From: a virus
Length of the DNA: 64,000 nucleotides
Virus record (IMG/VR): IMGVR_UViG_3300043773_000401
Coordinates: 1-64,000 of that record
Direction: 5' to 3' (one strand)
The notes below the pieces were generated by a model. It worked only from the letters and a program-made list of their open reading frames with translations, made no database searches and was not told the origin of the DNA. This document shows positions 1,667-37,114 of this stretch, one piece after another; position 1 is the stretch's first letter, and every line of letters begins with the position of its first letter. Position numbers and translations under genes: made by a program.

Positions 1667-2551
1667 CTATCCTTCTATTAAAGTTATCTCAAATTTAGGA
1701 AATCTTCCTTTCTTTTCATTAGTCCCTATAGAAAATTTTATCCAGGCACCACCTAAAGACGGAGCATTAAATCCTTTACTAACTTCCCACTGACTATCTT
1801 TACTATCTTTAAATGTAGACAACTGGATATGAGCTTGATCCTTAACTGTGTAGTTCATGTCAGCATTAAGAGATTTCTTAGTCCTATATACTACCCACTT
1901 CTGGTGAATATGACCATACACATATATATCAGCATCTATCATAGTCTGAGTCCGGCTAGTATTGATTACCCCCATAGTCACCGGAGCATTTCCCCCTAGT
2001 CCATGATTCCTATACATAAGTAAAGAAGCAGCCCCTTTAGTAATTTCTCCAGCACTAGTAAGCTGTTCAAACTGAAACTTAATAAACCCATCATATTGCT
2101 GATGTTGGATATTACTTCCGGTCTCTCTGTTTAACTCCTTGATAAGTTGCTTAGTCAGGTTACGTTCATGTCTCTGATTAACAGACTGCTCATGATTACC
2201 TTCACCTAGTATAGCAATGTTCTTAGCATAAGGCTTAAGAAAATCTACAGAGTCTTCTATAACAAGATCAAAGTAATTACCAAACTGAAACTCAGGCTTA
2301 ATATCTCCTTTAGTAGATCTTTTATCATACTTACCTCCCATCACATCAAACCAATCTCCATTATCTATAATAATAGCATTTCTTTCTACTGCCTGATCTA
2401 GTATTTCTTTAAGCTTTCGGGTATTACACTTCTTATTATCCTTGTGTACGTCAGAAGTAAGAAGCACCCACTGTGACCATTCTTTAGTATTCTTAAAAGG
2501 AACCCTAATAATTACACCATCATTCTTGGTCTCCCATGTCGGTTTTGCCAT
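1667..2551 (-). CDS. Calcineurin-like metallophosphoesterase
   Basis: Motifs SDVH, NGDWFD, GNHE, HG and GHIH in canonical order. Confidence 0.85.
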   Translation of the reverse strand: MAKPTWETKNDGVIIRVPFKNTKEWSQWVLLTSDVHKDNKKCNTRKLKEILDQAVERNAIIIDNGDWFDVMGGKYDKRSTKGDIKPEFQFGNYFDLVIEDSVDFLKPYAKNIAILGEGNHEQSVNQRHERNLTKQLIKELNRETGSNIQHQQYDGFIKFQFEQLTSAGEITKGAASLLMYRNHGLGGNAPVTMGVINTSRTQTMIDADIYVYGHIHQKWVVYRTKKSLNADMNYTVKDQAHIQLSTFKDSKDSQWEVSKGFNAPSLGGAWIKFSIGTNEKKGRFPKFEITLIEG

Positions 2552-2569
2552 AAATAATAATATCTACTG

Positions 2570-2601
2570 CTAATATACAACATCCCTAGATAACTACCAA
2601 A
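2570..2601 (-). promoter_or_regulatory. Bacteroidota sigmaA-like promoter for the - strand operon
   Basis: TTTG-N20-TATATTAG on the - strand (consensus TTTG-N19-21-TAnnTTTG, one mismatch), 18 nt upstream of ATG 2551. Confidence 0.5.
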
Positions 2602-2935
2602 TCTGAATGTTAATAAAGTGTTAGTAAGGGGTATAGGAATTATATATGTAGTAAAAAGAGAAGGGGTGGTAATTAACAACCCCCAGCAAAAAAATTCAGA
2701 GGGGGCTACCCCCATGGTTGTGGAGAGAGAGCAAGGGGTGGGTGGGGGTGTTGTAGAAAAAAAGCATGCTTGGCAAAGAAGATGTGTGTGATGTGAGAAG
2801 AAGAAGTGTGGTGTGCAGCAGGCAGGCAAGCAGAAGAAGTAGAAAGAGAGGAGCAAGCAGAGCAAGGGAAGATGTATATAGAATACTATACTATATATTA
2901 TATATACTATACCCGTTTGATTACTTAATACACAT

Positions 2936-3190
2936 ATGAAGAAACCAGAATTGCTTTTAATTCCTGTTGTATCATTTATAATAGGGATAGGATTAGGTGC
3001 AGGTGCTATGTTAGGTAGGTCATCTGCAGCACAAGTAACTACCAATGATGGTGTATGGACATTCATTGGAGATACTAATAACGGGGCTGAATGGAGAGTT
3101 ACTGATGATCAAGATAGTACATCAGTAGTTCATATATACCATAACGGCAAACTAGCAACATGGGTAGGGGAACCATGTAATTGCTATTAA
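2936..3190 (+). CDS. Small membrane-anchored/secreted early protein
   Basis: N-terminal hydrophobic segment; first + strand gene; motif variant ACCCGTTTG at 2911-2919. Confidence 0.6.
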   Translation: MKKPELLLIPVVSFIIGIGLGAGAMLGRSSAAQVTTNDGVWTFIGDTNNGAEWRVTDDQDSTSVVHIYHNGKLATWVGEPCNCY

Positions 3191-3252
3191 CTTATCTTCC
3201 CTTATATGTAATTCACATCAATAGTGCTAGGCAGCAATCCTGGTCGCAACTT

Positions 3253-9188: not shown

Positions 9189-9479
9189 ATGCTGTATCAA
9201 TTACCCAACGGAAGAACTGTCTATCTAACGGTTGAAGAATTCTTAGATCTGACAAAAGAAGAAGAACAATACTTAATCAGTATAGGTTATGGTGAAGTTA
9301 TCACTGATCCATGGTATGCTTCCCATTTATCCAAAGGTGAAATAAAGAATACAGACAATGATGATGATCTTGATATCACATACACAGAAGAAGATTTATC
9401 CAACTGTATAGATACTTCAGATGATTTCCTTGATGATCTACCAGATCTGAGTGATCTACTGGAGAACGCCCCAGAATAG
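9189..9479 (+). CDS. Highly acidic protein
   Basis: MLYQLPNGRTVYLTVEEFL followed by an Asp-rich C-terminal half. Confidence 0.7.
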   Translation: MLYQLPNGRTVYLTVEEFLDLTKEEEQYLISIGYGEVITDPWYASHLSKGEIKNTDNDDDLDITYTEEDLSNCIDTSDDFLDDLPDLSDLLENAPE

Positions 9480-9578
9480 TAATTTTAGTTTATTAATTTA
9501 TTCTCTTTGATGAAAGAACCACATCACTGAGATGTTTATCTATTGGTTCATATTGTATAATTGTTTAATTTTTATGTT

Positions 9579-10031
9579 ATGTCAAAAAGTGTAGTAGTTT
9601 TAGGAGAAGTAGGTAAGTCGCCTATTAATGTATCAGAGTCTAACTCAGAATTTGGGTATATCTTGGTACAACAGAAGAGAACATGGGTAGATAATACTGG
9701 ATGGGTAAGATCCAGAAATGTTACAGCACAAATACCGGGTGCAGTATCTGATTTAGAAGCTTTAGGTTATGAAAGTGGTATGGAAATTTCAGGAACTATT
9801 GTAGTTGTGGATTCCTTGACACCATTTAATACCCGTGAGCCACAGCGTGATCATAAACTTGCTGGTAAAACAGGTATTGTATGCTGTTTAGATGGTCAAC
9901 CTATTTATAGGAAGAATATCTATAAGCAAGACCCAAATGCTTTAGATCAGAAGATTCAGCACAATAACAATGAAGATATCCGTGCTGGTATTGTGAAGGC
10001 TAAGGCAGAAGATGAGAGTTTTTCTTTGTAG
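9579..10031 (+). CDS. Hypothetical protein, possible ssDNA-binding (beta-rich, acidic-aromatic tail)
   Basis: Ends EDESFSL; start moved to MSKSVV. Confidence 0.6.
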   Translation: MSKSVVVLGEVGKSPINVSESNSEFGYILVQQKRTWVDNTGWVRSRNVTAQIPGAVSDLEALGYESGMEISGTIVVVDSLTPFNTREPQRDHKLAGKTGIVCCLDGQPIYRKNIYKQDPNALDQKIQHNNNEDIRAGIVKAKAEDESFSL

Positions 10032-10054
10032 TTTTTCATGGTTTAAAGATGATG

Positions 10055-10080
10055 AAGGGAGTGTAACAGCTCCCTTTATT
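10055..10080 (+). terminator. Intrinsic terminator
   Basis: AAGGGAG-tgtaacag-CTCCCTT. Confidence 0.6.
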
Positions 10081-10105
10081 ATTTTAATTTATTAAATTTA
10101 TTTTT

Positions 10106-10510
10106 ATGTATAAAATTAAAACTGTAGATCCTGTTATATCTGATAACTATGTTTTCAGTAAAACACAGAATGAAATGTACAAGAAAGTCCTATGTGGACT
10201 TAACGGTATAGATGAGGGCACACTGAAAAGTATGACTCAAGAAGATAAAAGAGCCATTAAGAAAAGGCACAGTAAAGCACAGTATGTGCTGAATGTATGG
10301 AAGCAAGAGTTATCTGCCGAGATTGTTAATAATCTGGTGAAAACTTTGTTTCCAAAGAGCAGATTTTTTGCTGATTGTTTTGGTACTTACACAGATCCTT
10401 CTTACTTTAACACTTTGCAATTTAAGGACTTAGGTATATCCAAGGTTCAGATTGTGAATAAGTTAATTAAAGAAGGTTTATTACCAGAATACTTTTATCA
10501 GATAAAATGA
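10106..10510 (+). CDS. Hypothetical protein
   Basis: 134 aa ORF. Confidence 0.7.
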   Translation: MYKIKTVDPVISDNYVFSKTQNEMYKKVLCGLNGIDEGTLKSMTQEDKRAIKKRHSKAQYVLNVWKQELSAEIVNNLVKTLFPKSRFFADCFGTYTDPSYFNTLQFKDLGISKVQIVNKLIKEGLLPEYFYQIK

Positions 10511-24061: not shown

Positions 24062-24766
24062 ATGATTAACACATTAGATGTAAATGTAGAGTTAGGTTCA
24101 GGTGGTGGACCGAGTAAAGTATTAGAATATGGTAACCATGAAGTTACTGTAGTAAAAGTAATATTAGATGAAAATAGGTTTCAACCAGATTCTTATTTCC
24201 TAAAGTTTATTGTAGAAGGCCCAGATATGGGAGATGATTTCCAAGGTTTACTATTTGATAAGAATGATCCTAGTCTAGGAAGACACCGTGGTCAAGTAGG
24301 ATGGGTTAAAGCTAATCAATATGCTTTTGCAGATAAGAATGAAGGTGGTTTAGTAATTAAAAGAGATCAAGAGATCTTGAAATATATTAAATTGCTTGCA
24401 CTAGAATGTGAAGCAGGTGATTGGTTTATTGCACAAAATGGTAAGCATAGCACTATCCAGGAGTTTATCCAAGCAGTAAATGAATCTAAGTTCTTTAAAG
24501 ATAAACCACTTAGAGTTTGTATTGGTTCTAGAAGGTATGAGAGCAAAGGTTATATGAATAATGACTTGTTCTTAACCAGATGGACTAAGAAGAATAAACC
24601 ATTTGAGTCTGTATCTGTACCAGCAAGTGAGTCTATGATTCCTGTATTTAATGAAACAGAACATGTCTATACTAAGAAAGAAAAAGAAGTTTCTGGATTC
24701 AGCAGTGATGGAAGAGTAGAAGAGAAGAAAGTAAGCACCAAGTCTGGTGATGATTTTGACCTGTAA
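24062..24766 (+). CDS. Probable single-stranded DNA-binding protein
   Basis: Follows the Sak4-like ATPase; acidic tail GDDFDL. Confidence 0.55.
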   Translation: MINTLDVNVELGSGGGPSKVLEYGNHEVTVVKVILDENRFQPDSYFLKFIVEGPDMGDDFQGLLFDKNDPSLGRHRGQVGWVKANQYAFADKNEGGLVIKRDQEILKYIKLLALECEAGDWFIAQNGKHSTIQEFIQAVNESKFFKDKPLRVCIGSRRYESKGYMNNDLFLTRWTKKNKPFESVSVPASESMIPVFNETEHVYTKKEKEVSGFSSDGRVEEKKVSTKSGDDFDL

Positions 24767-24819: not shown

Positions 24820-25791
24820 ATGATCTATACTAGCAATGTCATACTATCAACTGATGAAATACCATCTACATGGATATTTGAGTACTATGCTCAATTACCA
24901 TATAAACTGGTAGGACAGTCAGCAAAGATTAAATCAATCTTTAACCCGAAAGATACAAACCCATCTCTAGTATTCTATGTAAAAGATGGTCAGTATAAGT
25001 TTAGAGATTTTTCAGCAGATATATCTGGTAATAAAGTATCCTTTGTAAAGAAACTACTAGAGAAGCAACTAAATAGAGAGATACCAATTAAAGATATTGA
25101 ATGTAAAATTATAGCAGACTATGTAGAGTATCTAGAAAATCATGATCATGAAGATATAAAGCTAGTAGAAGAAGAAAAGTGGAAGATTGTAGATTACAAA
25201 ACTAGAAGCTGGTACATGTATGATGCTAAGTACTGGACTGAATATGGTATAGGTTCTGATGTACTAGAGTTCTTTAATGTCAAGCCTCTGAAGAGTATTA
25301 TTATGAATAGAGGAATTGAGTATCTAGAAATATCTAGAGTCATGAGCTATGCATATACTCAGAAAGATGGCAGTATATACAAATTATATGTACCACTAGA
25401 TAATAAAGAGAAAAGATTCAAGAACTTTAATTCTAAGTATATCCAGGGTATGGATCAACTAAGTTATTCTAAACCTAATCTGGTTATATGCTCATCACTA
25501 AAAGATGCTATGGCTCTATATAGTTTTGGACTAGATCTAGATGTAATTGCACCAAACTCAGAAACTACTTTGATCTCACCAAGTATAATGGATACTCTAA
25601 AGAGTAGCTATCAAAGAATATGTATCTTATTTGACAATGATGATACCGGTAGAGCAGCTACAGCTAAATACCAAAAGAAGTATAATACTGAGTCTCTATA
25701 CCTACCCATAGAGAAAGATATATCAGATGCTGTAAAAGCACATGGTAGAGATACAATTAAACAAGAATTTATTAAAATTTTCAACACATGA
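24820..25791 (+). CDS. dnaG: DnaG-like DNA primase
   Basis: N-terminal SIFNP.D..PSL..FRDFS domain; TOPRIM SLKD and FDNDDTG. Confidence 0.8.
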   Translation: MIYTSNVILSTDEIPSTWIFEYYAQLPYKLVGQSAKIKSIFNPKDTNPSLVFYVKDGQYKFRDFSADISGNKVSFVKKLLEKQLNREIPIKDIECKIIADYVEYLENHDHEDIKLVEEEKWKIVDYKTRSWYMYDAKYWTEYGIGSDVLEFFNVKPLKSIIMNRGIEYLEISRVMSYAYTQKDGSIYKLYVPLDNKEKRFKNFNSKYIQGMDQLSYSKPNLVICSSLKDAMALYSFGLDLDVIAPNSETTLISPSIMDTLKSSYQRICILFDNDDTGRAATAKYQKKYNTESLYLPIEKDISDAVKAHGRDTIKQEFIKIFNT

Positions 25792-26219
25792 GTTGGATAT
25801 ATAACAGAGTGGAGTTTACTCCCGAGATGATTCCTGATGGAGCTATTGGCTTTGTATACTTAATGAGTGCCATTGTAGATGGTAAGTCAGTACTATACAT
25901 AGGCAAGAAGAACTTTTATACTGAGAAAAAGACTAAGCTTAAGAAGACTGAAAAACCAAATGACAAGAGGATGAAAGATTATAAGCTGGTCAAGAAATTA
26001 AACTATCAAAACTATTTCAGCAGCAATGATGTTCTTAAAGAAGCTCACAAGAAAGGAATTCAAATTAAACGGGAGATACTCCATATCTGTTATTCTAAGA
26101 CAGAACTTACTTACATGGAGACTAAACTCCAGTTTGTATATGGAGTACTAGAAAACTCAGATTACTTAAATGGTAACATACTAGGTAAATTTTATAAGCA
26201 AAATGGTAAATTGGGATGA
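25788..26219 (+). CDS. GIY-YIG-like nuclease
   Basis: GFVYLM...LYIGKK...Y.SSN...REIL...E...YLN.NI. Confidence 0.7.
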   Translation: MSWIYNRVEFTPEMIPDGAIGFVYLMSAIVDGKSVLYIGKKNFYTEKKTKLKKTEKPNDKRMKDYKLVKKLNYQNYFSSNDVLKEAHKKGIQIKREILHICYSKTELTYMETKLQFVYGVLENSDYLNGNILGKFYKQNGKLG

Positions 26220-26541
26220 TTTAAAAATCAATCTCTGTACATACTTATACATCCATCAAGACATAGCCTACAATACTGTAGAGTTTCATTTTAATGTAAA
26301 TACTAATTATTATAATGAGCCATATATTTCTGTGGTTTCAGTATATCCTGGTTATATGTCTGATTCTAAAACTACAGGATACATAGTAGATATTTTAATA
26401 GACTATATGAAATACTCAGATGATGAGATAAATAAAGGCTATGTAATGATTGATAAAGACGGTAATGTTGAGATATGGTTGTTTCAGGAAGATAAAAAAC
26501 AAAAAGTAAAATCTTTTAATATAAAAGAATATGGTACATAA
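26203..26541 (+). CDS. Hypothetical protein
   Basis: 112 aa packed ORF. Confidence 0.55.
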   Translation: MVNWDDLKINLCTYLYIHQDIAYNTVEFHFNVNTNYYNEPYISVVSVYPGYMSDSKTTGYIVDILIDYMKYSDDEINKGYVMIDKDGNVEIWLFQEDKKQKVKSFNIKEYGT

Positions 26542-26863
26542 TGCAATGATACTAGAACTATTAGATCTAGGTGCTGTAAAAGCAGTAATAAATTACTCTG
26601 GAGGTGGAGATTCTGGAGCTGTAGATGAAGTAGAATTTCGTGATGCTAATGATAATGTTCTAAAACTAGATGATAGACGTGAAGAAATAGAAGATATGGT
26701 ATATCCTTTATTAAATACACTAGAAGACTGGTGGAATAATGAAGGAGGATATGGACTAATGGTTCTTGATCTAAGAACAGGTGAGTATCATATTGAGAAC
26801 ACTATCTATATCCAACATACTGAAGAGTTTACACATACTGGAACTTTAGAATTAAAAGAATGA
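26531..26863 (+). CDS. DUF6878-like protein
   Basis: YSGGGDSG...WWNNEGGYG (family name recalled, not searched). Confidence 0.6.
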   Translation: MVHNAMILELLDLGAVKAVINYSGGGDSGAVDEVEFRDANDNVLKLDDRREEIEDMVYPLLNTLEDWWNNEGGYGLMVLDLRTGEYHIENTIYIQHTEEFTHTGTLELKE

Positions 26864-27231
26864 GTCATCCTGTAGAGCATGCTAAATCCTCTGTAAGAAA
26901 ATGGGGAGGATCTGTAGAAGATTACCTACCAATACATGAATGGTTTGATGAAACCAAATCTTGGTATGGACATAGTTTACATAGGATGTTTAGACATCAC
27001 TCAGAAGGAATATTTGAGTGTGAAAGAGTATTTGGTAAATACATTATCAATTCAGTAGGTAAGAGAATATACACTAGGTATGTAGGAGAACAGCATGTAA
27101 AAGAAGATTGCTATAACTATATACCTTCTGCTAAAGAATGGATATTGAATATGAATAATCCAACAGAATGGATGCTAAGAACTATTAAAATAGAAAAAGA
27201 AAATGACAAAGACCAAACTAACACCAACTGA
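26860..27231 (+). CDS. DUF6915-like His-rich protein
   Basis: HP..HA.SS.RKWGG...YLPIHEWFD...HR..RHHSEG...EQHVKED. Confidence 0.65.
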   Translation: MSHPVEHAKSSVRKWGGSVEDYLPIHEWFDETKSWYGHSLHRMFRHHSEGIFECERVFGKYIINSVGKRIYTRYVGEQHVKEDCYNYIPSAKEWILNMNNPTEWMLRTIKIEKENDKDQTNTN

Positions 27232-27607
27232 TTATCATAGTATGGTTAACTTGCTTAACTCTACAGATAAAGAAAATACTACAGTAGTATTATCTATACT
27301 AGAAAATCTAGATTTTACTGCTAACTTACCGTATATATTACTTTTGTTAAAGAGAATGAACAGACAAGATAGGGAAAAGATAGATGAGTATTCTAATCTT
27401 TGGAAGAATCTAAATAACATAGGTATTCAAACCAGTAATCCTATTAGAATGGCATTAATATTTCAGAAGATAAAACATCATGTAGATAGAGAAGCTGTAG
27501 AGTTTGTAATGAATGAAGGCTTTATTAATGATGTATTAAAGCATTTACAAGACTGGGGATTTGATTTCATAGATGAAGTAGATATAACTTTAAAACTTAG
27601 AGAATGA
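27203..27607 (+). CDS. Helical protein, paralogue of the C-terminal domains of 29972 and 31038
   Basis: SMVNLLNSTDKENTTVVLSILENLD motif. Confidence 0.7.
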   Translation: MTKTKLTPTDYHSMVNLLNSTDKENTTVVLSILENLDFTANLPYILLLLKRMNRQDREKIDEYSNLWKNLNNIGIQTSNPIRMALIFQKIKHHVDREAVEFVMNEGFINDVLKHLQDWGFDFIDEVDITLKLRE

Positions 27608-28782
27608 ATCTAAATGAGAATCTAGCAAAGGTCAGTAAAGATCTTATGCTTAAAGAGCCCTTCTATGGTTTATATCTATTGATGCTGAATAAGCATTGGT
27701 CAGATAAAGTACCAACAGCAGGTGTGTATATGAAAGGTATTAACTATCAAATTGATATTAATGCTGAGTTCTGGAATAGTCTAGAACACAACCATAAGAT
27801 AGGTCTTCTAAAGCATGAGCTATTGCATATTGCATTCTTTCATTTACTTAGAAGAGATGAGTTTCCAAATAAACAACTAGCTAATATTGCCATGGACTTG
27901 GAGATTAACCAGTATATAGATAGCCAGTATCTACCAGAAGGTGGTATGACACTTGAATTGTTTAAGGATCTTAATCTAGAACCAAAGAAAGGTACAAGAT
28001 ATTATTATGATAAGCTTCAACAAGAAGTAGATAATAATCAAAAGATTCAGAAGATCCTGCAAGCTATGGGTGATGGAGAGGCTAGAGATGGAGATGGTAC
28101 TCTAGTTCCTAACCACGACTGGGAAGCATTTGATGAGTTATCTGATGCTGAGAAGAAATTACTTGGTAGTCAGACAGACTTTCACTTAAAGCAACTAGCA
28201 GATGCTATGAGTAAAGGTAGAGGTACTATACCAGGAGAGCTATCTGATTATATTGCTAAACTTCTTAATCCTGAACCTGCTAAGTTTGATTGGAAAGGTT
28301 ATCTTAGAAGATTTGCAGGTGGATCTATTAAAGTATATACTAAGAAACTTAGAAGAAAGATAAACAGGAGATATGAAGAGAATCCTGGTTTGAAGATTAA
28401 ACCAAAGAGACATGTCCTTGTAGCAATAGATACTTCTGGTTCTGTAAGCAATGATGAGCTTGTAGAATTCATGAATGAGATACATCATATACATAAAACA
28501 GGATCTGATATTACAGTAGTACAGTGTGATACAGCCATTAGTAGTATATTACCCTATAAACCAAATTGTGATATTACAATTAAAGGTAGAGGAGGAACTG
28601 ATTTTGATCCGGTAATTGAGTATTTTAATGCTAACTTAAATAAATATACATGTCTTATTTATCTGACTGATGGTGAAGCACCAGCACCAGATCCTAAGCC
28701 TAAAGGTAAGACATTGTGGGCACTATCTAGTATTTCAAAAGAGGTAGATCATCTACCAGGAGTTACAATTAAATTAAATTAA
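27604..28782 (+). CDS. Metallopeptidase plus vWA domain protein (DUF2201-like)
   Basis: HELLH, NIAMDLEIN; MIDAS DTSGS, GRGGT, TDG. Confidence 0.88.
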   Translation: MNLNENLAKVSKDLMLKEPFYGLYLLMLNKHWSDKVPTAGVYMKGINYQIDINAEFWNSLEHNHKIGLLKHELLHIAFFHLLRRDEFPNKQLANIAMDLEINQYIDSQYLPEGGMTLELFKDLNLEPKKGTRYYYDKLQQEVDNNQKIQKILQAMGDGEARDGDGTLVPNHDWEAFDELSDAEKKLLGSQTDFHLKQLADAMSKGRGTIPGELSDYIAKLLNPEPAKFDWKGYLRRFAGGSIKVYTKKLRRKINRRYEENPGLKIKPKRHVLVAIDTSGSVSNDELVEFMNEIHHIHKTGSDITVVQCDTAISSILPYKPNCDITIKGRGGTDFDPVIEYFNANLNKYTCLIYLTDGEAPAPDPKPKGKTLWALSSISKEVDHLPGVTIKLN

Positions 28783-28789
28783 ACACATT

Positions 28790-29965
28790 ATGGCACAAGT
28801 AAATTTGAACATTGACGAACTAAAGACATTCTTTGGACACATTGTAAAGAATAATCAGCACATACAAGCAGAAGGTAAAGTACCTGTTGCAGTAAATATA
28901 GAAGGTGAAGCGGGTATTGGTAAGACTAGTAGTATATTACAGCTCTCTAAGGAGTTGAACATGAGTATGGTTAAGTTATCTTTATCTCAGATAGAGGAGA
29001 TAGGTGACTTAGTGGGTTTTCCAGTTAAGGAGTTTGAGATGATTAAGGAAGATGGTACTACTGCTTGGGTTCAAGAATCTACTATGCCTATGTACATACA
29101 AAGTAAGTACAAGCCAACTGGAGAAAAGAGAATGACACATGCTGCTCCTGAGTGGATTCAGGGTAAGGAAGAAGGTGGGTTCTTGATCTTAGATGACTAT
29201 ACTCGTGCTGATCAAAGATTCATGCAGGCATGTATGGAGATCATAGATCGTCAAGAATATATCTCTTGGAAGTTACCTAAGAACTGGCATGTTATCTTAA
29301 CTTCTAATCCAGATAATGGTAACTATCTTGTTACTAGCTTGGATGATGCTCAGAAGACTAGGTTTATTACAGTAAATCTAACATTTGATATTGATTGCTG
29401 GGCTCGTTGGGCTGAGTCTGCTAATATAGATTCTAGATGTATTAACTTCTTATTGATGCATCCAGATCTAGTTACAGAGAAGACTAATGCTAGGAGTATT
29501 ACTACATTCTTTAACTCAATTAGTTCTATACCAGATTTCCAGGAGAATCTACCATTGATCCAAATGATTGGTGAAGGTTCTGTAGGAGCTGAGTTCAGTA
29601 CTATGTTTACTATGTTTATCAATAATAGATTGGATAAAATGATACATCCTAAGGATATCATTAATAATCCAAACTGGGCATATGTAAAAGGTGAGTTGCT
29701 AAACTCTATTGGTAAAGATGATTCTTATCGTGCAGACATTGCTAGTGTGATGACTACTAGAACTATCAACTATGCATTGAATTATGCAGAAAAGAATACT
29801 GTAGATCAGAAGATCATTGATAGAATCATAGCTCTTACTACAGATGAAGATGTATTTACTAATGATCTTAAGTATTATATTATCAAGGGTATTGTAAATG
29901 GTAACAAGACTAAGTTTACCAAGCTTATGATGAACCCTGAAGTTGTGAAAATGGCAGTAAAATAA
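28790..29965 (+). CDS. MoxR-like AAA+ ATPase
   Basis: GEAGIGKT, GDLVGFP, LDDYTRA, TSNP, LDDAQKTRF. Confidence 0.85.
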   Translation: MAQVNLNIDELKTFFGHIVKNNQHIQAEGKVPVAVNIEGEAGIGKTSSILQLSKELNMSMVKLSLSQIEEIGDLVGFPVKEFEMIKEDGTTAWVQESTMPMYIQSKYKPTGEKRMTHAAPEWIQGKEEGGFLILDDYTRADQRFMQACMEIIDRQEYISWKLPKNWHVILTSNPDNGNYLVTSLDDAQKTRFITVNLTFDIDCWARWAESANIDSRCINFLLMHPDLVTEKTNARSITTFFNSISSIPDFQENLPLIQMIGEGSVGAEFSTMFTMFINNRLDKMIHPKDIINNPNWAYVKGELLNSIGKDDSYRADIASVMTTRTINYALNYAEKNTVDQKIIDRIIALTTDEDVFTNDLKYYIIKGIVNGNKTKFTKLMMNPEVVKMAVK

Positions 29966-29971
29966 TAGCCT

Positions 29972-31036
29972 ATGGGATTATATTTATTTCCCACTGTAGA
30001 TATGACAAAGATGGCAAAGCTTCGTTTCTTACGGGCTTTGCCTTATCTACATAGTGGTAATAGTAGTAATAGTTTAACTTTATTGTTTGTTGCAGATAAA
30101 ATTGAGAATGTTAAAAAGATAGAAGACATTTTCACAGGAACAAAAGGTACAATAAAGAAAGGAGATAAAGTTTATATTTTACCAGCATGTAAGATACCGG
30201 GATATAAACTAAAAGAATATGCTAAAACAGTAGGAGCTACAATCACTAGTAACTATGAAAAAGCTACAGTAATAGTTGGAACATCTGGATACAGAGGTAG
30301 ATCAGAGTTTAGAGATACTCCTATAAAGTCTATGGTTACTAACTTTGGATATTATATTAAAGAGTTTAAAACTGAAAATCTTCGTACTTATATAGAAAAT
30401 AATAAAGTACTAAAAGAGTTATCAATCATAGGACATAACCTAGATGAGTATGAATCTTTTGTTACTAATATGAGATTCCAGGATAGCTTAATGGGGGATC
30501 ATGCATTTGCAATTACACCACTAGGAGCAGATATACTATACAATATCTTTGCTAATAAAGTAACAGTGATATCAGAAGATGAACTAGTTAAAGATATAGC
30601 TCCAACTGGTATACTTACAGATGAGATGGTAGCATCACTAAAAGAAATGTTTAAATCTTATGATGAATCTAATCACAAAATAGCTCAAGAGATTTTGTAT
30701 AACTGTGATGTAGAGAATTCTATTTATAATATCTATAAGTTAGTAAGAGACGTTGGTGTCTGGAAGCTTATGGATAATAGAAATAAGAATGCTAAACTAT
30801 TTGCAGAGAGATGTAGTATTTATAAATTACAGGATGCAGATGCATATAAGATTATTAAACTCTTAAATGAAAATTATCCTGAACAGCTGACAACAGAAGT
30901 ATTCAATGAATTACTAGCAGGTGCAGCTAAAAGATATATGAGACATATAACTGACTCAGAAATATTTACAGTAGAGGTAAAACTATCTGATAAGTTTAAC
31001 AAGTTTAACCCAGAATTCACTTTTAAAATTCCTTAG
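29972..31036 (+). CDS. BRCT-like plus shared helical domain protein
   Basis: KLKEYAKTVGATITSNYEKATVIV; SLKEMFKSYDESNHKIAQEILYNCD. Confidence 0.65.
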   Translation: MGLYLFPTVDMTKMAKLRFLRALPYLHSGNSSNSLTLLFVADKIENVKKIEDIFTGTKGTIKKGDKVYILPACKIPGYKLKEYAKTVGATITSNYEKATVIVGTSGYRGRSEFRDTPIKSMVTNFGYYIKEFKTENLRTYIENNKVLKELSIIGHNLDEYESFVTNMRFQDSLMGDHAFAITPLGADILYNIFANKVTVISEDELVKDIAPTGILTDEMVASLKEMFKSYDESNHKIAQEILYNCDVENSIYNIYKLVRDVGVWKLMDNRNKNAKLFAERCSIYKLQDADAYKIIKLLNENYPEQLTTEVFNELLAGAAKRYMRHITDSEIFTVEVKLSDKFNKFNPEFTFKIP

Positions 31037-31037
31037 T

Positions 31038-32102
31038 ATGTTTAAAGAAATGTTTTATTTAACTCAAGTAACTTCAACAAGTAATACACTTGTACTTGAT
31101 AAGTATATGGTTAATGATTTTAAAGTAGAGTATGATAGTGATGGTGATTTAGAACCTGACACATCAGAATTAAATAGAAATAATATTAACTTTAAAAAAG
31201 AAATAGATATTAATAGTATTAAAACTATTTATCTTAGTTCTCATTGTGGTGCTCCTAGAGTTAAAGTTAGAGAGTGGGCAGAGAAGAATAATATAAAACT
31301 AGTAAGAGATGCTAGTAAAGCAGATGCTTGTTTCTATTCAGAAAAAGATTATGATTGTGCAAGTAGATTATATTGTCAGGTTTTGAGTAAACAATTACTT
31401 ATTAAACTACTCACTAGTTCAGTAAATAAACATAGTAATACTATAGAAATTATTAGAACTATTCAGAACATGCATGATGTAGAATACTTCTTTACTAATA
31501 GAACTGTGTTTTATAATAATCCATTACTAGTAAACGGTAAAGAATCTAAAACCTGGACTTGTCAATATGTATATGACCAAGATGCTTATGAATCTGTAAG
31601 TCATTTACTAATTGCTGATAATATTTATCATGTAGATGTACTAAATAAATTTATTAACAATGGTGTGGTGATAAATAGAGAAATGTATAATTCACTATGC
31701 TTAATGTTTGATAGTGAGGATCCTAGTAATCATGTGGTTGCTATGGAGATTATGGCAAATTCTGATTTTGAGAAAAGTGCACTATATTTGTACAGGTTAT
31801 TCATGCATTATGTTAATAATAAAATTTATAATAGAAAGGAAAGAAACCATGTAAACTTTAAGAATTTAGTAAAGTGGATGAATAAAGGTACATATCATGA
31901 AGATGATACAGCTGAATTCTTAATTGAAAAAGGTTTGTTTACTCAGTCTGTGGCAGATGAATTACTAGGAATATTTAAAGAGGATAAAGATAGATATATG
32001 ACAATGAACTCTCTTACTTTTACTGATATAGATTTTACTGATGATATAAAGAGTAAGATAATTCTAGATCCTGTAGTAGAAGAAAAATTAGAACAACTAT
32101 GA
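31038..32102 (+). CDS. BRCT-like plus shared helical domain protein (paralogue of 29972)
   Basis: KVREWAEKNNIKLVRDASKADACF; SLCLMFDSEDPSNHVVAMEIMANSD. Confidence 0.65.
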   Translation: MFKEMFYLTQVTSTSNTLVLDKYMVNDFKVEYDSDGDLEPDTSELNRNNINFKKEIDINSIKTIYLSSHCGAPRVKVREWAEKNNIKLVRDASKADACFYSEKDYDCASRLYCQVLSKQLLIKLLTSSVNKHSNTIEIIRTIQNMHDVEYFFTNRTVFYNNPLLVNGKESKTWTCQYVYDQDAYESVSHLLIADNIYHVDVLNKFINNGVVINREMYNSLCLMFDSEDPSNHVVAMEIMANSDFEKSALYLYRLFMHYVNNKIYNRKERNHVNFKNLVKWMNKGTYHEDDTAEFLIEKGLFTQSVADELLGIFKEDKDRYMTMNSLTFTDIDFTDDIKSKIILDPVVEEKLEQL

Positions 32103-33166
32103 TAAACACAGAAGTTAATGCTATTAGACTAGAAGAAGAATTTTATGGTAGGTATCACTACTTTAGTTATTCAGCAATTAACAGACTGTTATTCTCACCT
32201 AAGTTATTTTACAATCACTATATTCTTGGTGAAAGAGAAGATAAATTAGAATCTCATTTGATAGAGGGCAAGGTTATCCATTGCCTTCTATTAGATAGAG
32301 ATAAGTTTGAAGAGCAGTTTGCATTGTCACCGGATAAACTTCCAACTGATAGTGTGAAGACTGTAATAGATAGAGTATATAACTATCATATGCAGCAAGT
32401 TAAAGAAGGCTTCTCAGTAGAGACTGCCACATTAGATTATTATGCAGATATAATTTTACAGACTCTAGTAGAAGTAAACTTGCATCAAGCATTAACAGAT
32501 GATAAGAAAGCAGATAAAGAAGGGGTCCAAAAGACCGGAGACCAAAAGAGATTAGAGAAAGTTATAACAGATCAAACAGCTAGTTACTTTGAGTTCTTAA
32601 AGATAAAAGAAAAGAGAGACATAATAGATCAAGCAACGTATAATAAATGTATGGATATTGTTTCTATACTGGAGCAAGATCCTAAAGTAAGAATGTTACT
32701 GAATCTTGATGATGATGGGAGAACTACATTTAATGAGTATCCATTATCCTTTGAATCTAAAGCTCACGGTTTTGGGTTTAAAGGTATAGTAGATAATTTC
32801 TCTATAGACTTTGCTCACCGCAAGATTTATATTAATGACCTAAAGACATCTGCCAAGTCAATTGATAAGTTTCCTGAAAGTGTAGAATATTACAAGTACA
32901 ATCTCCAAGCTATTATGTATGTCAGATTAGTATCATGGTATATAGAGAATCATTTTGGTATTGATGTAGATGGTACATGGACTATAGACTTACATTTTGT
33001 AGTAATAGATCCGTACAAGCAGGTCTATGCTTACAAAGTATCTGATGATACTATGGTTAGATGGTTAGATGAGTTCTCTGATGTACTTAAGAAGGTTCAG
33101 TGGCATTATGACAACAGAAGATATGACTTACCCTATAGTTTAGCTGTTGATAACTTAACACTGTAA
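32099..33166 (+). CDS. PD-(D/E)XK exonuclease (RecE/Cas4-like)
   Basis: SYSAI, G.VIH, NE, KGIVD...INDLKT, Y.LQA.MY. Confidence 0.8.
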   Translation: MINTEVNAIRLEEEFYGRYHYFSYSAINRLLFSPKLFYNHYILGEREDKLESHLIEGKVIHCLLLDRDKFEEQFALSPDKLPTDSVKTVIDRVYNYHMQQVKEGFSVETATLDYYADIILQTLVEVNLHQALTDDKKADKEGVQKTGDQKRLEKVITDQTASYFEFLKIKEKRDIIDQATYNKCMDIVSILEQDPKVRMLLNLDDDGRTTFNEYPLSFESKAHGFGFKGIVDNFSIDFAHRKIYINDLKTSAKSIDKFPESVEYYKYNLQAIMYVRLVSWYIENHFGIDVDGTWTIDLHFVVIDPYKQVYAYKVSDDTMVRWLDEFSDVLKKVQWHYDNRRYDLPYSLAVDNLTL

Positions 33167-33173
33167 ATACCAT

Positions 33174-33743
33174 ATGAGCAAAATTAAGGACTTATATCGG
33201 AACTATTTTCAAAAGTCTAGGATATTTTTATATCCAGCATTAGACATAAAGAAGGGTAATAGTGTTACTCCTATTGAAACCTATATATCTTGGAAAGGAT
33301 ATGTAGAACAAACAGACCGGAGGTTAATCTGTCTCTATCATCTAAGAAATGATGTAGAATATAGAACCTTTGAGAAATCCAAGTTACTAAAGAGTAGTTT
33401 ATTTGAAGACTTTAGAGAAGTAGAGGGTGGTAAAGGAGTGTATATATTTAACTATGACATGTATAGTAAAGACTGGCAGCATTTTCTGAATGGTGAGTAT
33501 TCTAAATTTAGTTTCCCACTAAAGAAGAAGATCAGAGACTTTATAGGCTCAGCATCTAGTAACTCTGTATATGTAGATAGTTATTTGTATCCTGAGAAGT
33601 ATTATAGAATATATGCAGATATACTTGGTGTAGATGAAGATACTCTTAGATCTACTGGGCAATTATGTGATAAACCAGATTTTAACAAAGAATTGTTAGA
33701 AATATCTGTAAAAGATTTGCAAATAAATAAAATTATCACTTAA
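33174..33743 (+). CDS. Hypothetical protein
   Basis: 189 aa ORF. Confidence 0.7.
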   Translation: MSKIKDLYRNYFQKSRIFLYPALDIKKGNSVTPIETYISWKGYVEQTDRRLICLYHLRNDVEYRTFEKSKLLKSSLFEDFREVEGGKGVYIFNYDMYSKDWQHFLNGEYSKFSFPLKKKIRDFIGSASSNSVYVDSYLYPEKYYRIYADILGVDEDTLRSTGQLCDKPDFNKELLEISVKDLQINKIIT

Positions 33744-33748
33744 ATTTG
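33716..33748 (+). promoter_or_regulatory. Bacteroidota sigmaA promoter
   Basis: TTTG-N21-TAAATTTG upstream of ATG 33772. Confidence 0.55.
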
Positions 33749-33771
33749 TGCTCTATTAAAAACCAAAGTAT

Positions 33772-34170
33772 ATGAATTCAATGATGTTAGTATCTGGTAC
33801 ATTCCAGAACATCCCAACTTTTAGAATGATCCCATTAACTAAAGAGTGTCCATATGTAGAGGCATACTATAATCCTATGTATAATGTACTAGGTATTGTA
33901 TCTCTAAATAAGAAAGCAGCTTTACATCTTACTAATAAGTTAGATGATAATGGAGATCCTATATTGAGAAAGGATTTTAAAGCTAGAGAAGAACAGAAGC
34001 AATCTCCTTATAAACAACACAAGGTTACCTTGGAAAACTATGAAGAATTCTTTATTACAAATAGAGATGAGATCAAGTGGTTTATTGAGAAGTTTGCAGC
34101 TAACATGAATGAATTTGACTATAGTAAATATCTTACTAGTATTGCAGCAGAAGAAGTTCCTGCTCCATAA
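33772..34170 (+). CDS. Hypothetical protein
   Basis: 132 aa ORF. Confidence 0.7.
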   Translation: MNSMMLVSGTFQNIPTFRMIPLTKECPYVEAYYNPMYNVLGIVSLNKKAALHLTNKLDDNGDPILRKDFKAREEQKQSPYKQHKVTLENYEEFFITNRDEIKWFIEKFAANMNEFDYSKYLTSIAAEEVPAP

Positions 34171-34272: not shown

Positions 34273-36267
34273 ATGGAGAAAAAGTCACATTGGGTAATGG
34301 ACTATGAGACTTTATTGAATTGCTTTGTAGCTGTATTTGAGCACTATAAAGAAGATGAGATAAAGATATTTGTAGTATCCAGACTAAGAAATGATATAAA
34401 GGAGCTATACAAGTTCCTAGAAAGAAACAAGGCTAATAGAGAGTATCACATATCTTTCAATGGTTTAGGATTTGACTCACAGATAACTGAGTTTATACTA
34501 AATAACAAGAAGAGTTTTATAGAAGGTGATCCTCAATATATTGCCAACATGATCCATGAGAAAGCTAATGAGATAATATCATCTCAAGAACGTGGAGAAT
34601 TTTTAGAGTTTAGTGAAGGCAAGCTTAGCATCCCACAGATTGATGTATTTAAACTTAATCACTGGGATAATCCAGCAAAGAGATCTAGTCTAAAGTGGAT
34701 ACAATATAGTATGGATTGGTATAATATTCAAGAGATGCCTATCCATCATAGTAGTTATATAGATAAAATGAAAGATCTAGAAACTATTATTGGTTATTGT
34801 ATTAATGATGTTAGGTCTACTAAACAGATATATAACCTATCAAAAGATTTGGTAGGACTTAGAAAAGCATTAACAGAACAATACAATCTTAAACTTTATA
34901 GTGCATCTGAACCAAGGATAGCTAAAGAGATATTCCTGGAGTTGTTATGTAGAGATCTTAAACTTCCTAAGTATGATGTAAGACAATACAGAACTAATAG
35001 AAGCAAGATAAAAGTAAAAGATATAATATTACCTTATATAAAATTTAGAACCCCGGAGTTTCAGAGTATCCTAGAAAACTTTAACAAGTTAGTTATTGAT
35101 CCACAGAATACTAAGGGAGGATTCAAGTATTCAATTACTCACAAGAAAGTAAGAACTGATTTTGGTCTAGGTGGTGTTCATGGTGCAAAGGAAGCAGGAG
35201 AATATGCAGCAAGTGAAGATATGATAATCATGACTTCAGATGTTACTAGCTTCTATCCTAACCTAGCTATTAGAAATAAATGGGCTCCAGCACACTTATC
35301 TAAAGATGTATTTTGTCAGTTGTATGAATGGTTCTTTGAGGAAAGAAAAAAGATACCCAAGAAAGATCCAAGAAATTATGTATACAAGATTATATTGAAT
35401 TCAACTTATGGTTTGAGCAATGACCGTAATAGTTTTCTATATGATCCAGAGTTTACAATGAAGATTACCATTAATGGTCAATTGAGTCTGATGATGTTGT
35501 ATGAGATGTTGTCTACAGGTATCCCAGAGTCTAAGCCTTTGATGCAGAATACAGATGGTCTAGAGATGATAATCCCAAGACAGTACAAAGAGAAGTATCT
35601 AGAGATATGCAAAGAGTGGGAAGATATGACTCAGCTACAATTAGAGCATGATGAGTATCAGAAACTATTCTTAGCAGATGTGAATAATTATATTGCTGTA
35701 AATAACTACAAGGAAGTATCTAAAGAAGTGTATGAGGAAGTAAAATCTAGCAGCCCTCATTATCTATTCAAGGAAGAATCTAGTAAATATTTCTATGCAG
35801 CTACTAAATGTAAAGGTAGATTTGAGTTTCATGGTCTGCCGTTACACAAGAATAAAAGCTATCTAGTAATTAGAAAAGCAGTATATAACTATTTTGTTCA
35901 TAGTATAGCTCCTACAGATTATCTAGAACAGAATAGAAATATTTATGATTATTGTGCTGGTGTAAAAATAAAAGGAGACTGGCACTTTCAAAGTATATGT
36001 TACAAGAATGGCAAGCTTATAGAGCAGGATCTACAGAACATCTTAAGATATTATATATCTGATAATGGATGTAAGATTCTTAAGAAGCACAAAACTGATA
36101 ATAGAGTTATCCAATTAGAAAGTGGTAACTGGTTACAGACAGTGTTTAATACTCTAGAGAAGAAGCCATGGGAAGAATATCATATTAATCTTGATTACTA
36201 TATGAAAGAGATTAATAAGGAGATTCACAATATCACAATTAGTAAAAATCAATTAAAATTATTTTAG
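34273..36267 (+). CDS. polB: Family B DNA polymerase with 3'-5' exonuclease
   Basis: DYET, FNGLGFD, YC.ND; DVTSFYPN, KIILNSTYG, NTDG. Confidence 0.92.
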   Translation: MEKKSHWVMDYETLLNCFVAVFEHYKEDEIKIFVVSRLRNDIKELYKFLERNKANREYHISFNGLGFDSQITEFILNNKKSFIEGDPQYIANMIHEKANEIISSQERGEFLEFSEGKLSIPQIDVFKLNHWDNPAKRSSLKWIQYSMDWYNIQEMPIHHSSYIDKMKDLETIIGYCINDVRSTKQIYNLSKDLVGLRKALTEQYNLKLYSASEPRIAKEIFLELLCRDLKLPKYDVRQYRTNRSKIKVKDIILPYIKFRTPEFQSILENFNKLVIDPQNTKGGFKYSITHKKVRTDFGLGGVHGAKEAGEYAASEDMIIMTSDVTSFYPNLAIRNKWAPAHLSKDVFCQLYEWFFEERKKIPKKDPRNYVYKIILNSTYGLSNDRNSFLYDPEFTMKITINGQLSLMMLYEMLSTGIPESKPLMQNTDGLEMIIPRQYKEKYLEICKEWEDMTQLQLEHDEYQKLFLADVNNYIAVNNYKEVSKEVYEEVKSSSPHYLFKEESSKYFYAATKCKGRFEFHGLPLHKNKSYLVIRKAVYNYFVHSIAPTDYLEQNRNIYDYCAGVKIKGDWHFQSICYKNGKLIEQDLQNILRYYISDNGCKILKKHKTDNRVIQLESGNWLQTVFNTLEKKPWEEYHINLDYYMKEINKEIHNITISKNQLKLF

Positions 36268-36268
36268 T

Positions 36269-37114
36269 ATGCCAACAAAAATTGGATGGTCAACAAGGGG
36301 ATATATAGAAAGTATCCCCTTACCTAATCATGGTAGCACTTATACAGTAATACCACACAAAGACGTAATAGAAAAAGTATATGAGACATTTGCTGCTAAT
36401 AACTTAGTAGTAGAGAAAGAACTTTACCGTGTAACACTTAATGGTAATGTAGCTTCTGCAGTATATCATTTAAAGTCAGATTTAATAGATGATCCAGAGT
36501 TAGGTTTAATCTTCTTCTGGCTTAATAGTTATGATAAGTCTAGAGCATTTACATGTTCAGTAGGAGCATATAATAAAAATAAAGATGTGTATTATATCAA
36601 AGGAGATATATCATCTTGGGTTAGAAGACACAGAGGTGAAGCTGATAAAGAGTATGGTCTAAATATAACTAATCAGATAGACATAGCTAATGATTACTTC
36701 ACTGCAATTATTAAGGACAGAAATAGCATGATGCGGGTAAAAGTATCTGAAAAGGATATTGCTCATATTATGGGAGAAGCTTACTTTACTCATGAAATAT
36801 TATCTACTGATCAAGCAACAGGATTTATTAATTTAAGTAAAGATAAGAATTCTATCTTTAATAAAACAGAAACTTTGTGGGAATTATATACTAAGATTAG
36901 TTTCTGTATAAAGTCCTCACACCCAAGTAAATGGTTCAATAATCAGTGTAACTTACATGATTTAGTAATGACAAATTATTGTAAATTATCAACAAATGAT
37001 GATCAACTTCCAGGTCAATTATCTATATTTGATGTGATTGAGGATACTACTGAGTTAGTTCCTGAATTAGAAACTCAAAAAGATTATTTTGATTTAACTG
37101 ATTATGGCCTTTAA
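36269..37114 (+). CDS. DUF932-like protein
   Basis: TYTVIPH...LNSYDKSRAF....G...RRHRG. Confidence 0.55.
   Translation: MPTKIGWSTRGYIESIPLPNHGSTYTVIPHKDVIEKVYETFAANNLVVEKELYRVTLNGNVASAVYHLKSDLIDDPELGLIFFWLNSYDKSRAFTCSVGAYNKNKDVYYIKGDISSWVRRHRGEADKEYGLNITNQIDIANDYFTAIIKDRNSMMRVKVSEKDIAHIMGEAYFTHEILSTDQATGFINLSKDKNSIFNKTETLWELYTKISFCIKSSHPSKWFNNQCNLHDLVMTNYCKLSTNDDQLPGQLSIFDVIEDTTELVPELETQKDYFDLTDYGL

Follow-up and report, generated by a model that had tools for sequence, protein, structure and literature searches.

The locus considered here raises the question of whether three paralogous phage proteins are dedicated partners of the ATPase and the protease whose genes they flank. It lies in the first 64,000 nucleotides (nt) of IMG/VR record IMGVR_UViG_3300043773_000401, and this whole stretch is referred to as the window. 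Five open reading frames (ORFs), all on the + strand and abutting or overlapping, code in this order for paralogue A (ORF 27203), a zincin-vWA protein, an AAA_5/MoxR-like ATPase, paralogue B (ORF 29972) and paralogue C (ORF 31038). An earlier reading made from the letters of the window (the sequence-only reading) had described the five genes as contiguous, and their coordinates were verified. We propose a five-gene functional block, in which a machine of the phage N4 gp24/gp25 type, together with lineage-specific BRCT-like/alpha-solenoid partners, acts on replication/recombination proteins. We assign this proposal a probability of about 0.5. Judged from sequence, A, B and C are probably the dedicated partners of the pair, be it as adaptors or as clients. 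The partner family is new, while the ATPase/vWA-protease pair is already known.

The zincin-vWA protein exceeds the Pfam cut-offs for DUF2201_N (62.9 bits, cut-off 23.2) and DUF2201 (69.6 bits, cut-off 26.4). The HExxH peptidase attributed to it by the sequence-only reading is present as HELLH, and the metal ion-dependent adhesion site (MIDAS) is present as DTSGS. Both are intact, and H71, E72, H75, D276, S278, S280, T332 and D356 are invariant in 18 orthologues. Matches (tblastn) were found in 451 phage records, including the "N4 gp25-like protein" of LUZ7.

The ATPase had been called a MoxR protein. This holds for its Walker motifs (G39, G42, G44, K45, T46, S47, D135 and D136 are invariant in 15 orthologues) and for the adjacent vWA gene (7 nt from the end of that gene to the ATPase start). 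Profile comparisons are less clear: a profile of the 15 orthologues matches the AAA domains of Midasin (expectation value (E) 2e-13; CobS, E 0.02) over the Walker A region alone (positions 25-78), and in Pfam AAA_5 (E 9e-4, 19.7 bits, cut-off 22) and AAA_3 (17.3 bits, cut-off 27) stay below their cut-offs. With tblastn, "MoxR-like ATPase" genes of N4-like phages, cyanophages and AR9/PBS1 were found. An assignment as clamp loader (phrog_168, E 4e-7) was rejected because the matches to phrog_1297 and to Midasin/CobS are far stronger. By sequence, the two proteins are assigned to the N4 gp24/gp25 type of pair. N4 gp24 and gp25 are among the 14 core genes of N4-like phages, where gp24 is listed as "unknown" and gp25 by its vWFA domain only (PMC4193335). 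MoxR ATPases work with vWA partners on dedicated clients (PMC7159879). In one related locus (L123), vWA-peptidase and ATPase are fused in frame into a 786-residue ORF (junction ...VIKLE-QIQLNIDELK...).

The helical domain common to A, B and C, which the sequence-only reading had aligned over 44 residues, is real and comprises about 110 residues. When 21 A orthologues were compared with 27 C-family proteins (hhalign), the probability was 97.3% (E 1.6e-11), with A residues 4-113 matching C residues 210-319. The common unit is thus a domain of this length, and A is its free-standing copy. The conserved face of the domain is marked by M-x-x-S-x-D-x-x-N ... A-x-x-I. In pairwise BLASTP, B and C share 44% identity over 55 residues (E 2e-7) and A and C share 30% over 67 residues (E 3e-5); A and B gave no match. 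A core profile built from metagenomic relatives, with no window sequence included, detects C (E 1e-30), B (E 2e-11) and A (E 2e-8) and no further ORF of the window at E <= 0.01. Genome-wide (114,817 bp), the domain is present in exactly three copies. The domain tree splits into A, B and C types, which indicates old paralogues rather than recent duplicates. In this tree, the long B of the window clusters with short B forms of 160 residues. Most B-bearing relatives have this short form, which lacks the N-terminal part, and L085 is the sole other case of a long B.

The AlphaFold model of A (predicted local distance difference test (pLDDT) 89.5) has seven helices and matches generic alpha-solenoids alone, with Z <= 5.4, a range usual for any helical protein. 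Residues 211-290 of the C model match ARM/HEAT repeats with Z 5-5.9 (VIA-align), which again is usual for any helical protein. The shared domain is predicted to be a small alpha-solenoid (ARM/HEAT-like). A Foldseek search of PDB structures with the C model returned nothing, and in BFVD the search with A gave three phage proteins without characterisation that are as long as C, one of them from a "CrAss-like virus".

B and C also share their N-terminal segment, as had been noticed earlier: a profile built without window sequences detects both (B: E 2e-14; C: E 8e-15). In the C model (pLDDT 75), residues 57-208 form an alpha/beta domain. This domain aligns to more than ten BRCT entries, among them Rad4/TopBP1, PTIP, Mdb1, BARD1, Dbf4 and Sir4 (Z 5.0-6.4, root-mean-square deviation 2.3-4.0 A, 69-80 residues), at values below the safe level for a fold match. 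BRCT is the sole Pfam family matched by more than one C-family member, but weakly (3 of 27, best E 0.079), and none of the window's proteins reaches its threshold. Among structural neighbours in the ESM Atlas, BRCT proteins are enriched, yet all have a template modelling (TM) score < 0.35. The BRCT identity of the N-terminal domain is thus moderately supported by the models, and because of the low Z-scores and the weak Pfam matches we use the label "BRCT-like" rather than BRCT. As in the BRCT scaffolds TopBP1/Rad4, PTIP, BARD1 and Dbf4, with which the predicted fold aligns, a protein-binding helical region is predicted to follow the domain. Unlike these, C has one BRCT-like domain rather than a tandem pair, and the sequence likeness is marginal (Pfam E >= 0.079).

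The family is phage-specific. A word search yielded 56 metagenomic relatives of C, 434 IMG/VR contigs were confirmed, and a full HMMER scan gave 1,489 clusters at 50% identity. Among 185,579 species genomes, the family occurs in one, on a 118-kb phage-like contig binned with a Chitinophagaceae metagenome-assembled genome (MAG). No Pfam model exists for the family and no paper on it was found. When B, C, a typical member (P0057) and a giant protein of 2243 residues were compared by tblastn with 50,697 phage records, nothing was found, nor did blastn of the region return anything, so that no relative in culture is known.

The analysis of gene neighbourhoods covered about 175 loci, taken from IMG/VR, one MAG and a few metagenome contigs. 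Linkage within the window's clade was counted from about 160 of these, considering evaluable loci only. The ATPase gene is directly upstream of C in all 151 loci, and in 108 of 108 once duplicate C sequences are removed. The vWA gene is found upstream in 102 of 103 loci, the exception being the vWA-ATPase fusion of L123. A is present in 69 of 78 loci and short B in seven of 78. The evolution of A and C is about four times as fast as that of the pair (Kimura distances of 1.10 for A and 1.25 for C, versus 0.29 for the ATPase and 0.35 for the vWA protein). The adaptors of a conserved machine often evolve fast, and we count the difference in rate as fitting such adaptors.

Linkage beyond synteny is provided by a second lineage, which was found via the second contig of the MAG and 15 further IMG/VR loci (L172-L186). 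Its ATPase has 37% identity to the consensus of the window's clade (hhalign). The gene order is DnaB-x-vWA-ATPase-C-like-second paralogue-x-Sak4-x-x-GIY-primase (x being other genes), with C-like proteins of 266-278 residues (277 in the order given) and a second paralogue of about 230 residues. DUF6878, DUF6915 and A are missing, no PD-(D/E)XK nuclease gene adjoins, and the polymerase is elsewhere. All 10 loci that show the four positions keep vWA, ATPase, C-like and a gene of the second paralogue's size together, and in eight of the 10 this last gene scores on the domain profile. The vWA-ATPase-C-paralogue part of the block thus holds together despite reshuffled replication genes, which supports a functional link.

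A bacterial locus points in the same direction. When a vWA profile was searched against 401 Bacteroidota genomes, the closest cellular pair was found on a 267-kb contig of one genome (G048; vWA 2e-84, ATPase 2e-81), downstream of two leucine-rich repeat (LRR) proteins that bear the helical signature. One of these, with 531 residues, has the signature at residues 229-286. The other, with 1156 residues, has WGR, TPR and LRR domains, BRCT (680-734), the signature (765-820) and further LRRs. This BRCT domain exceeds its Pfam cut-off (23.5 bits, cut-off 21.3), and about 30 residues separate it from the signature that follows. The layout is that of C, to which the protein may or may not be homologous. 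When the complete 5.4 Mb of G048 were scanned in six frames, the domain profile gave a sole significant match (E 0.0015; the next is at E 0.84), and this is the 531-residue gene, two genes from the pair. It is very unlikely that a chance match would land there, and the position therefore supports a functional link. Metagenome relatives of the bacterial ATPase, which are on contigs too short for partners to be seen, gave no further domain matches.

The G048 island itself (L197) continues after the pair with AHSA1-like, nitroreductase and AraC-type genes, a tyrosine integrase, a SUKH immunity-type protein and an OLD-family (AAA_15 + TOPRIM) nuclease, and could represent a cellular conflict system with this kind of pair at its core. 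Another cellular ATPase-vWA pair (L210) adjoins a protein of 1120 residues with receiver, AAA and Peptidase_M41 (FtsH-like) domains. It recalls the FtsH-ternary vWA-MoxR systems (PMC7159879).

In several relatives, the vWA and ATPase genes are split by ORFs for GIY-YIG/NUMOD1 or LAGLIDADG homing endonucleases, as is the polymerase gene. In the N4-like phage Pollock, the gp24 ATPase gene is interrupted by an HNH endonuclease gene. The insertions in these core genes are probably mobile introns. Homing elements favour conserved, indispensable genes, so their presence in the genes of the pair argues for a core function rather than for an accessory anti-defence role.

The proposed functional block would work as follows. 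The helical domain would contact the vWA/ATPase machine or link the paralogues to each other. The BRCT-like domain would recruit the complex to replication/recombination intermediates, either to DNA ends or to phosphorylated proteins. There, the machine would use ATP to remodel, and perhaps cut, a protein. Homology, domain make-up, intact catalytic motifs and conserved linkage are observed here, and physical contact with the pair, the direction of the relationship (adaptor or substrate) and the target are what we infer. That the five genes are one unit, as the sequence-only reading had supposed, agrees with the constant position of the ATPase upstream of C, with the block kept in the second lineage and with the G048 locus. 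The idea that "variable parts select targets" fits poorly: A and short B are barely more than the domain, and the extra part of C is conserved and BRCT-like. It is a better fit for the one bacterial locus, in whose proteins LRR, TPR and WGR domains are joined to the signature. It is tempting to go further and to consider the helical domain a dedicated docking module for DUF2201-type vWA/MoxR machines of phages and bacteria, with the BRCT-like domain aiming the machine at proteins on replicating or broken DNA. We regard this wider version as rather unlikely.

Several observations weigh against a functional block. The replication module as a whole is syntenic in the window's clade, so that adjacency counts alone cannot separate function from descent. 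The pair occurs widely without the family: profile and hhalign searches beside the pairs of N4-like phage Pollock, Alteromonas phage AD45-P1 and Moorella phage MTATph1 gave no A/B/C homologue, and the family is therefore no general requirement of the pair. For G048, the scores are modest (21 bits; hhalign probability 40% for the 531-residue protein), the 1156-residue protein gave no significant hhalign match to the C family, and this is one genome out of 401 of its order. A natural protein of 700 residues from a metagenome (P0169) fuses C not to the ATPase but to the nuclease: a C-type part (residues 40-315) is followed by an acidic linker and a PD-(D/E)XK nuclease (residues 382-696), which matches the nuclease of the window with E 3e-82. 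A targeted search found no longer fused forms of C. In a background-corrected mirror-tree analysis of 34 genomes, C correlates slightly more with the nuclease (0.31) and the primase (0.41) than with the ATPase (-0.01) or the vWA protein (0.14). A co-varies more with the ATPase in this test, which is noisy; the distances of A and C are near saturation. Finally, a C-terminal acidic tail with [FIL][DE]WF at its tip is found in about 65% of C orthologues, and this, together with the tails of the SSB-like, DUF932-like and polymerase neighbours, ties C to replisome-style peptide docking. The C of the window is without that tail (it ends ...EEKLEQL), and the C-like protein of the second lineage ends ...NFSWKQ (L171/L172).

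Alternatively, A, B and C may be replication/recombination accessories, for example a scaffold, for the PD-(D/E)XK exonuclease, the Sak4-like annealase, the SSB-like protein and the polymerase, and may be next to the pair through the shared module alone. The P0169 fusion and the C partial correlations fit this explanation, and the nuclease gene comes next after C in 100 of 113 loci. The acidic tail resembles DDFDL of the SSB-like protein and PDFF of the DUF932-like proteins. BRCT domains are typical of DNA-repair and replication proteins. In the second lineage, however, where Sak4 and primase have changed place and no nuclease gene adjoins, the C-like gene and its paralogue still stand directly behind the ATPase gene. 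The bacterial locus combines the pair with signature proteins without replication genes, and A is located on the far side of the pair from the nuclease. The P0169 fusion is a single cluster and may be an assembly or frameshift artefact of overlapping genes. An accessory role for A, B and C without a functional link to the pair is unlikely in our view, but has to be taken seriously.

The sequence-only reading had considered an anti-defence function, with the paralogues aiming the ATPase/protease at host immune proteins. In its favour, no genes of the module evolve faster than A and C, the nearest cellular pairs are beside LRR proteins, with integrase, SUKH and OLD-family nuclease genes in the G048 island, and the L210 pair with its FtsH-like neighbour resembles vWA-MoxR conflict systems (PMC7159879). 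But these are core genes, present in every locus at a fixed, syntenic position among replication genes, and they are targets of homing endonucleases like the polymerase gene. Anti-defence genes are usually accessory and variable in position. PADLOC gave no match for A, vWA, ATPase, B or C, and no known anti-defence domain was found in them. An anti-defence function is thus without support and we consider it improbable.

That the pair is a virion-assembly chaperone/protease, with A, B and C unrelated or assembly factors, is quite improbable: such a virion assembly/processing role was proposed for the pair of group 2.2 jumbo phages (Iyer et al. 2021, PMC7824862, where a MoxR-vWA system needed for tail assembly of an archaeal virus is also cited), but the block here is between primase and polymerase, far from structural genes, the N4 pair consists of middle genes (PMC4193335), and BRCT-like partners do not suggest capsid or tail work.

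The source phage is an uncultured aquatic crAss-like phage. Its record has 114,817 bp (CheckV completeness 96%, GC content about 32%), and three giant - strand ORFs come after a long run of + strand genes. The crAss-like assignment agrees with the BFVD search, in which the closest predicted structures to A include a "CrAss-like virus" protein. The replication module spans 21.7 to 37.1 kb (Pfam and PHROG scans). It consists of genes for a DnaB-like helicase, an unknown protein, a Sak4-like AAA_24 protein, an unknown protein with a DDFDL tail, a Toprim primase, a SegE-like GIY-YIG protein, an unknown protein, DUF6878 and DUF6915, followed by A, zincin-vWA, ATPase, B, C, the PD-(D/E)XK nuclease, two unknown genes, the DNA polymerase and a DUF932-like protein. 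The block is on the replication strand. Coordinates are listed in Table 1.

Several neighbours deserve mention in their own right.

(a) DUF6878 is found in most loci of the window's clade and is absent from the second lineage.

(b) The SegE-like gene has a fixed place after the primase gene in 58 of 80 related loci. This is unusual for a homing endonuclease, and the protein may be a domesticated nuclease.

(c) The SSB-like protein of 234 residues has an acidic tail ending ...SGDDFDL, with FSLD or FNLD instead in the majority of relatives. An acidic stretch also closes the DUF932-like protein, whose relatives end in PDFF. From their sequences, the DDFDL and PDFF tails appear to be docking tails like the SSB C-terminus, of the same kind as the [FIL][DE]WF tip of C orthologues.

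(d) The polymerase ends in QLKLF (L[STK]LF in relatives). QLxLF is the bacterial beta-clamp-binding motif. The fit of this terminus suggests that the phage polymerase uses the host sliding clamp.

Table 1. Coordinates and assignments of the features discussed. Positions without a locus name are those of the window.
Feature	Coordinates	Strand	Details
SSB-like protein	24062-24766		
SegE-like GIY-YIG gene	25788-26219		
DUF6878 gene	26531..26863	+	Pfam PF21798, E 2e-10; 55/80 loci; upstream neighbour
DUF6915 gene	26860..27231	+	Pfam PF21866, E 2e-40; 50/80 loci; 3' end overlaps start of A
Paralogue A, 134 residues	27203..27607	+	free-standing helical domain, residues 4-113, nt 27212-27541; stop overlaps vWA start codon
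Zincin-vWA protein, N4 gp25-like	27604..28782	+	DUF2201_N + DUF2201 (PF13203 + PF09967); Pfam, phrog_1314; HELLH, residues 71-75, nt 27814-27828; MIDAS DTSGS, residues 276-280, nt 28429-28443
AAA_5/MoxR-like ATPase, N4 gp24-like	28790..29965	+	phrog_1297, E 7e-36; Walker A GEAGIGKTS, residues 39-47, nt 28904-28930; LILDD, 131-136; Walker B DD, nt 29192-29197
Paralogue B, 354 residues	29972..31036	+	BRCT-like, residues 57-109, nt 30140-30298; helical core, residues 212-284, nt 30605-30823
Paralogue C, 354 residues	31038..32102	+	BRCT-like, residues 57-208, nt 31206-31661; helical, residues 210-319, nt 31665-31994
PD-(D/E)XK nuclease	32099..33166	+	Pfam PDDEXK_1, phrog_412; start overlaps stop of C
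DNA polymerase	34273-36267		phrog_1252; C-terminus QLKLF, 36250-36264
DUF932-like protein	36269-37114		
Homing endonuclease ORFs in relatives	L053:583-1332; L011:4593-5447; L057:1065-1850, 2491-3237, 9444-10118		
vWA-ATPase fusion	L123:2593-4953		
G048 island L197	G048:C28:98000-117000		WGR-TPR-LRR-BRCT-LRR protein, LRR protein, ATPase, vWA-peptidase
Receiver + AAA + Peptidase_M41 protein	L210:3120-6479	-	

The pair can be compared with four kinds of known systems. With N4 gp24/gp25 (Schitoviridae) it shares the AAA_5-like ATPase, the DUF2201_N/DUF2201 zincin-vWA protein and a place among early/middle, replication-side genes; tblastn alignments, with identities of 23-29%, cover about half of the ATPase and the greater part of the vWA protein. 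The gene order differs (here vWA before ATPase, in N4-like phages ATPase before vWA), the surroundings of the Pollock pair contain no detectable relative of A, B or C, and the phage here is crAss-like, not N4-like. RavA-ViaA, CoxD-CoxE, CbbQ-CbbO and Midasin/Rea1 likewise combine an AAA_5-clade ATPase with a vWA domain with complete MIDAS, and Midasin is the best solved match. The MIDAS domain of Midasin grips small adaptor domains of its clients, and this is the logic that we propose for the vWA protein here. Unlike in these chaperone pairs, the vWA protein has an N-terminal zincin protease, and the proposed partners, known here from sequence, are BRCT-like/alpha-solenoid proteins rather than UBL domains or metabolic enzymes.

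The pair of group 2.2 jumbo phages (PMC7824862) also consists of a MoxR ATPase and a vWA protein with N-terminal metallopeptidase. A virion-assembly role was proposed for it and no partner family was named, whereas here the pair is in a replication module and has probable dedicated partners, which are paralogous. The vWA-MoxR ternary conflict systems (Kaur, Iyer and Aravind 2020, PMC7159879) have a vWA-MoxR core with additional diversifying proteins, and the nearest cellular copies of the pair are beside LRR/TPR-rich proteins and once beside an FtsH-like protease. They differ in that the block has no effector domains and no PADLOC match and is set in the replication module of a lytic phage. 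Among the genes from 26531 to 34170, Pfam and PHROG scans gave no Peptidase_M41 and no beta-propeller family; VMAP was not searched for.

The pair recurs in N4-like phages, jumbo phages, cyanophages and a large group of aquatic crAss-like phages. Besides the partner family itself, what is new is the lineage with reordered genes, the scan of the whole bacterial genome for the domain, the two fusions (C-nuclease and vWA-ATPase) and the argument from homing endonucleases. The partner family is the first concrete handle on the pair: its members can serve as pull-down baits, and their predicted DNA- or phosphoprotein-directed domain points to a site of action. A link of the pair to replication, as opposed to virion assembly, can also be tested with it. 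If the wider and less likely version holds, with the helical domain as a dedicated docking module, no adaptors of the N4 gp24/gp25-type core pair would have been identified before A, B and C, and the machine would be a phage counterpart of the pairing between the DNA-directed zincin protease Spartan/Wss1 and the AAA+ unfoldase p97/Cdc48 of eukaryotes.

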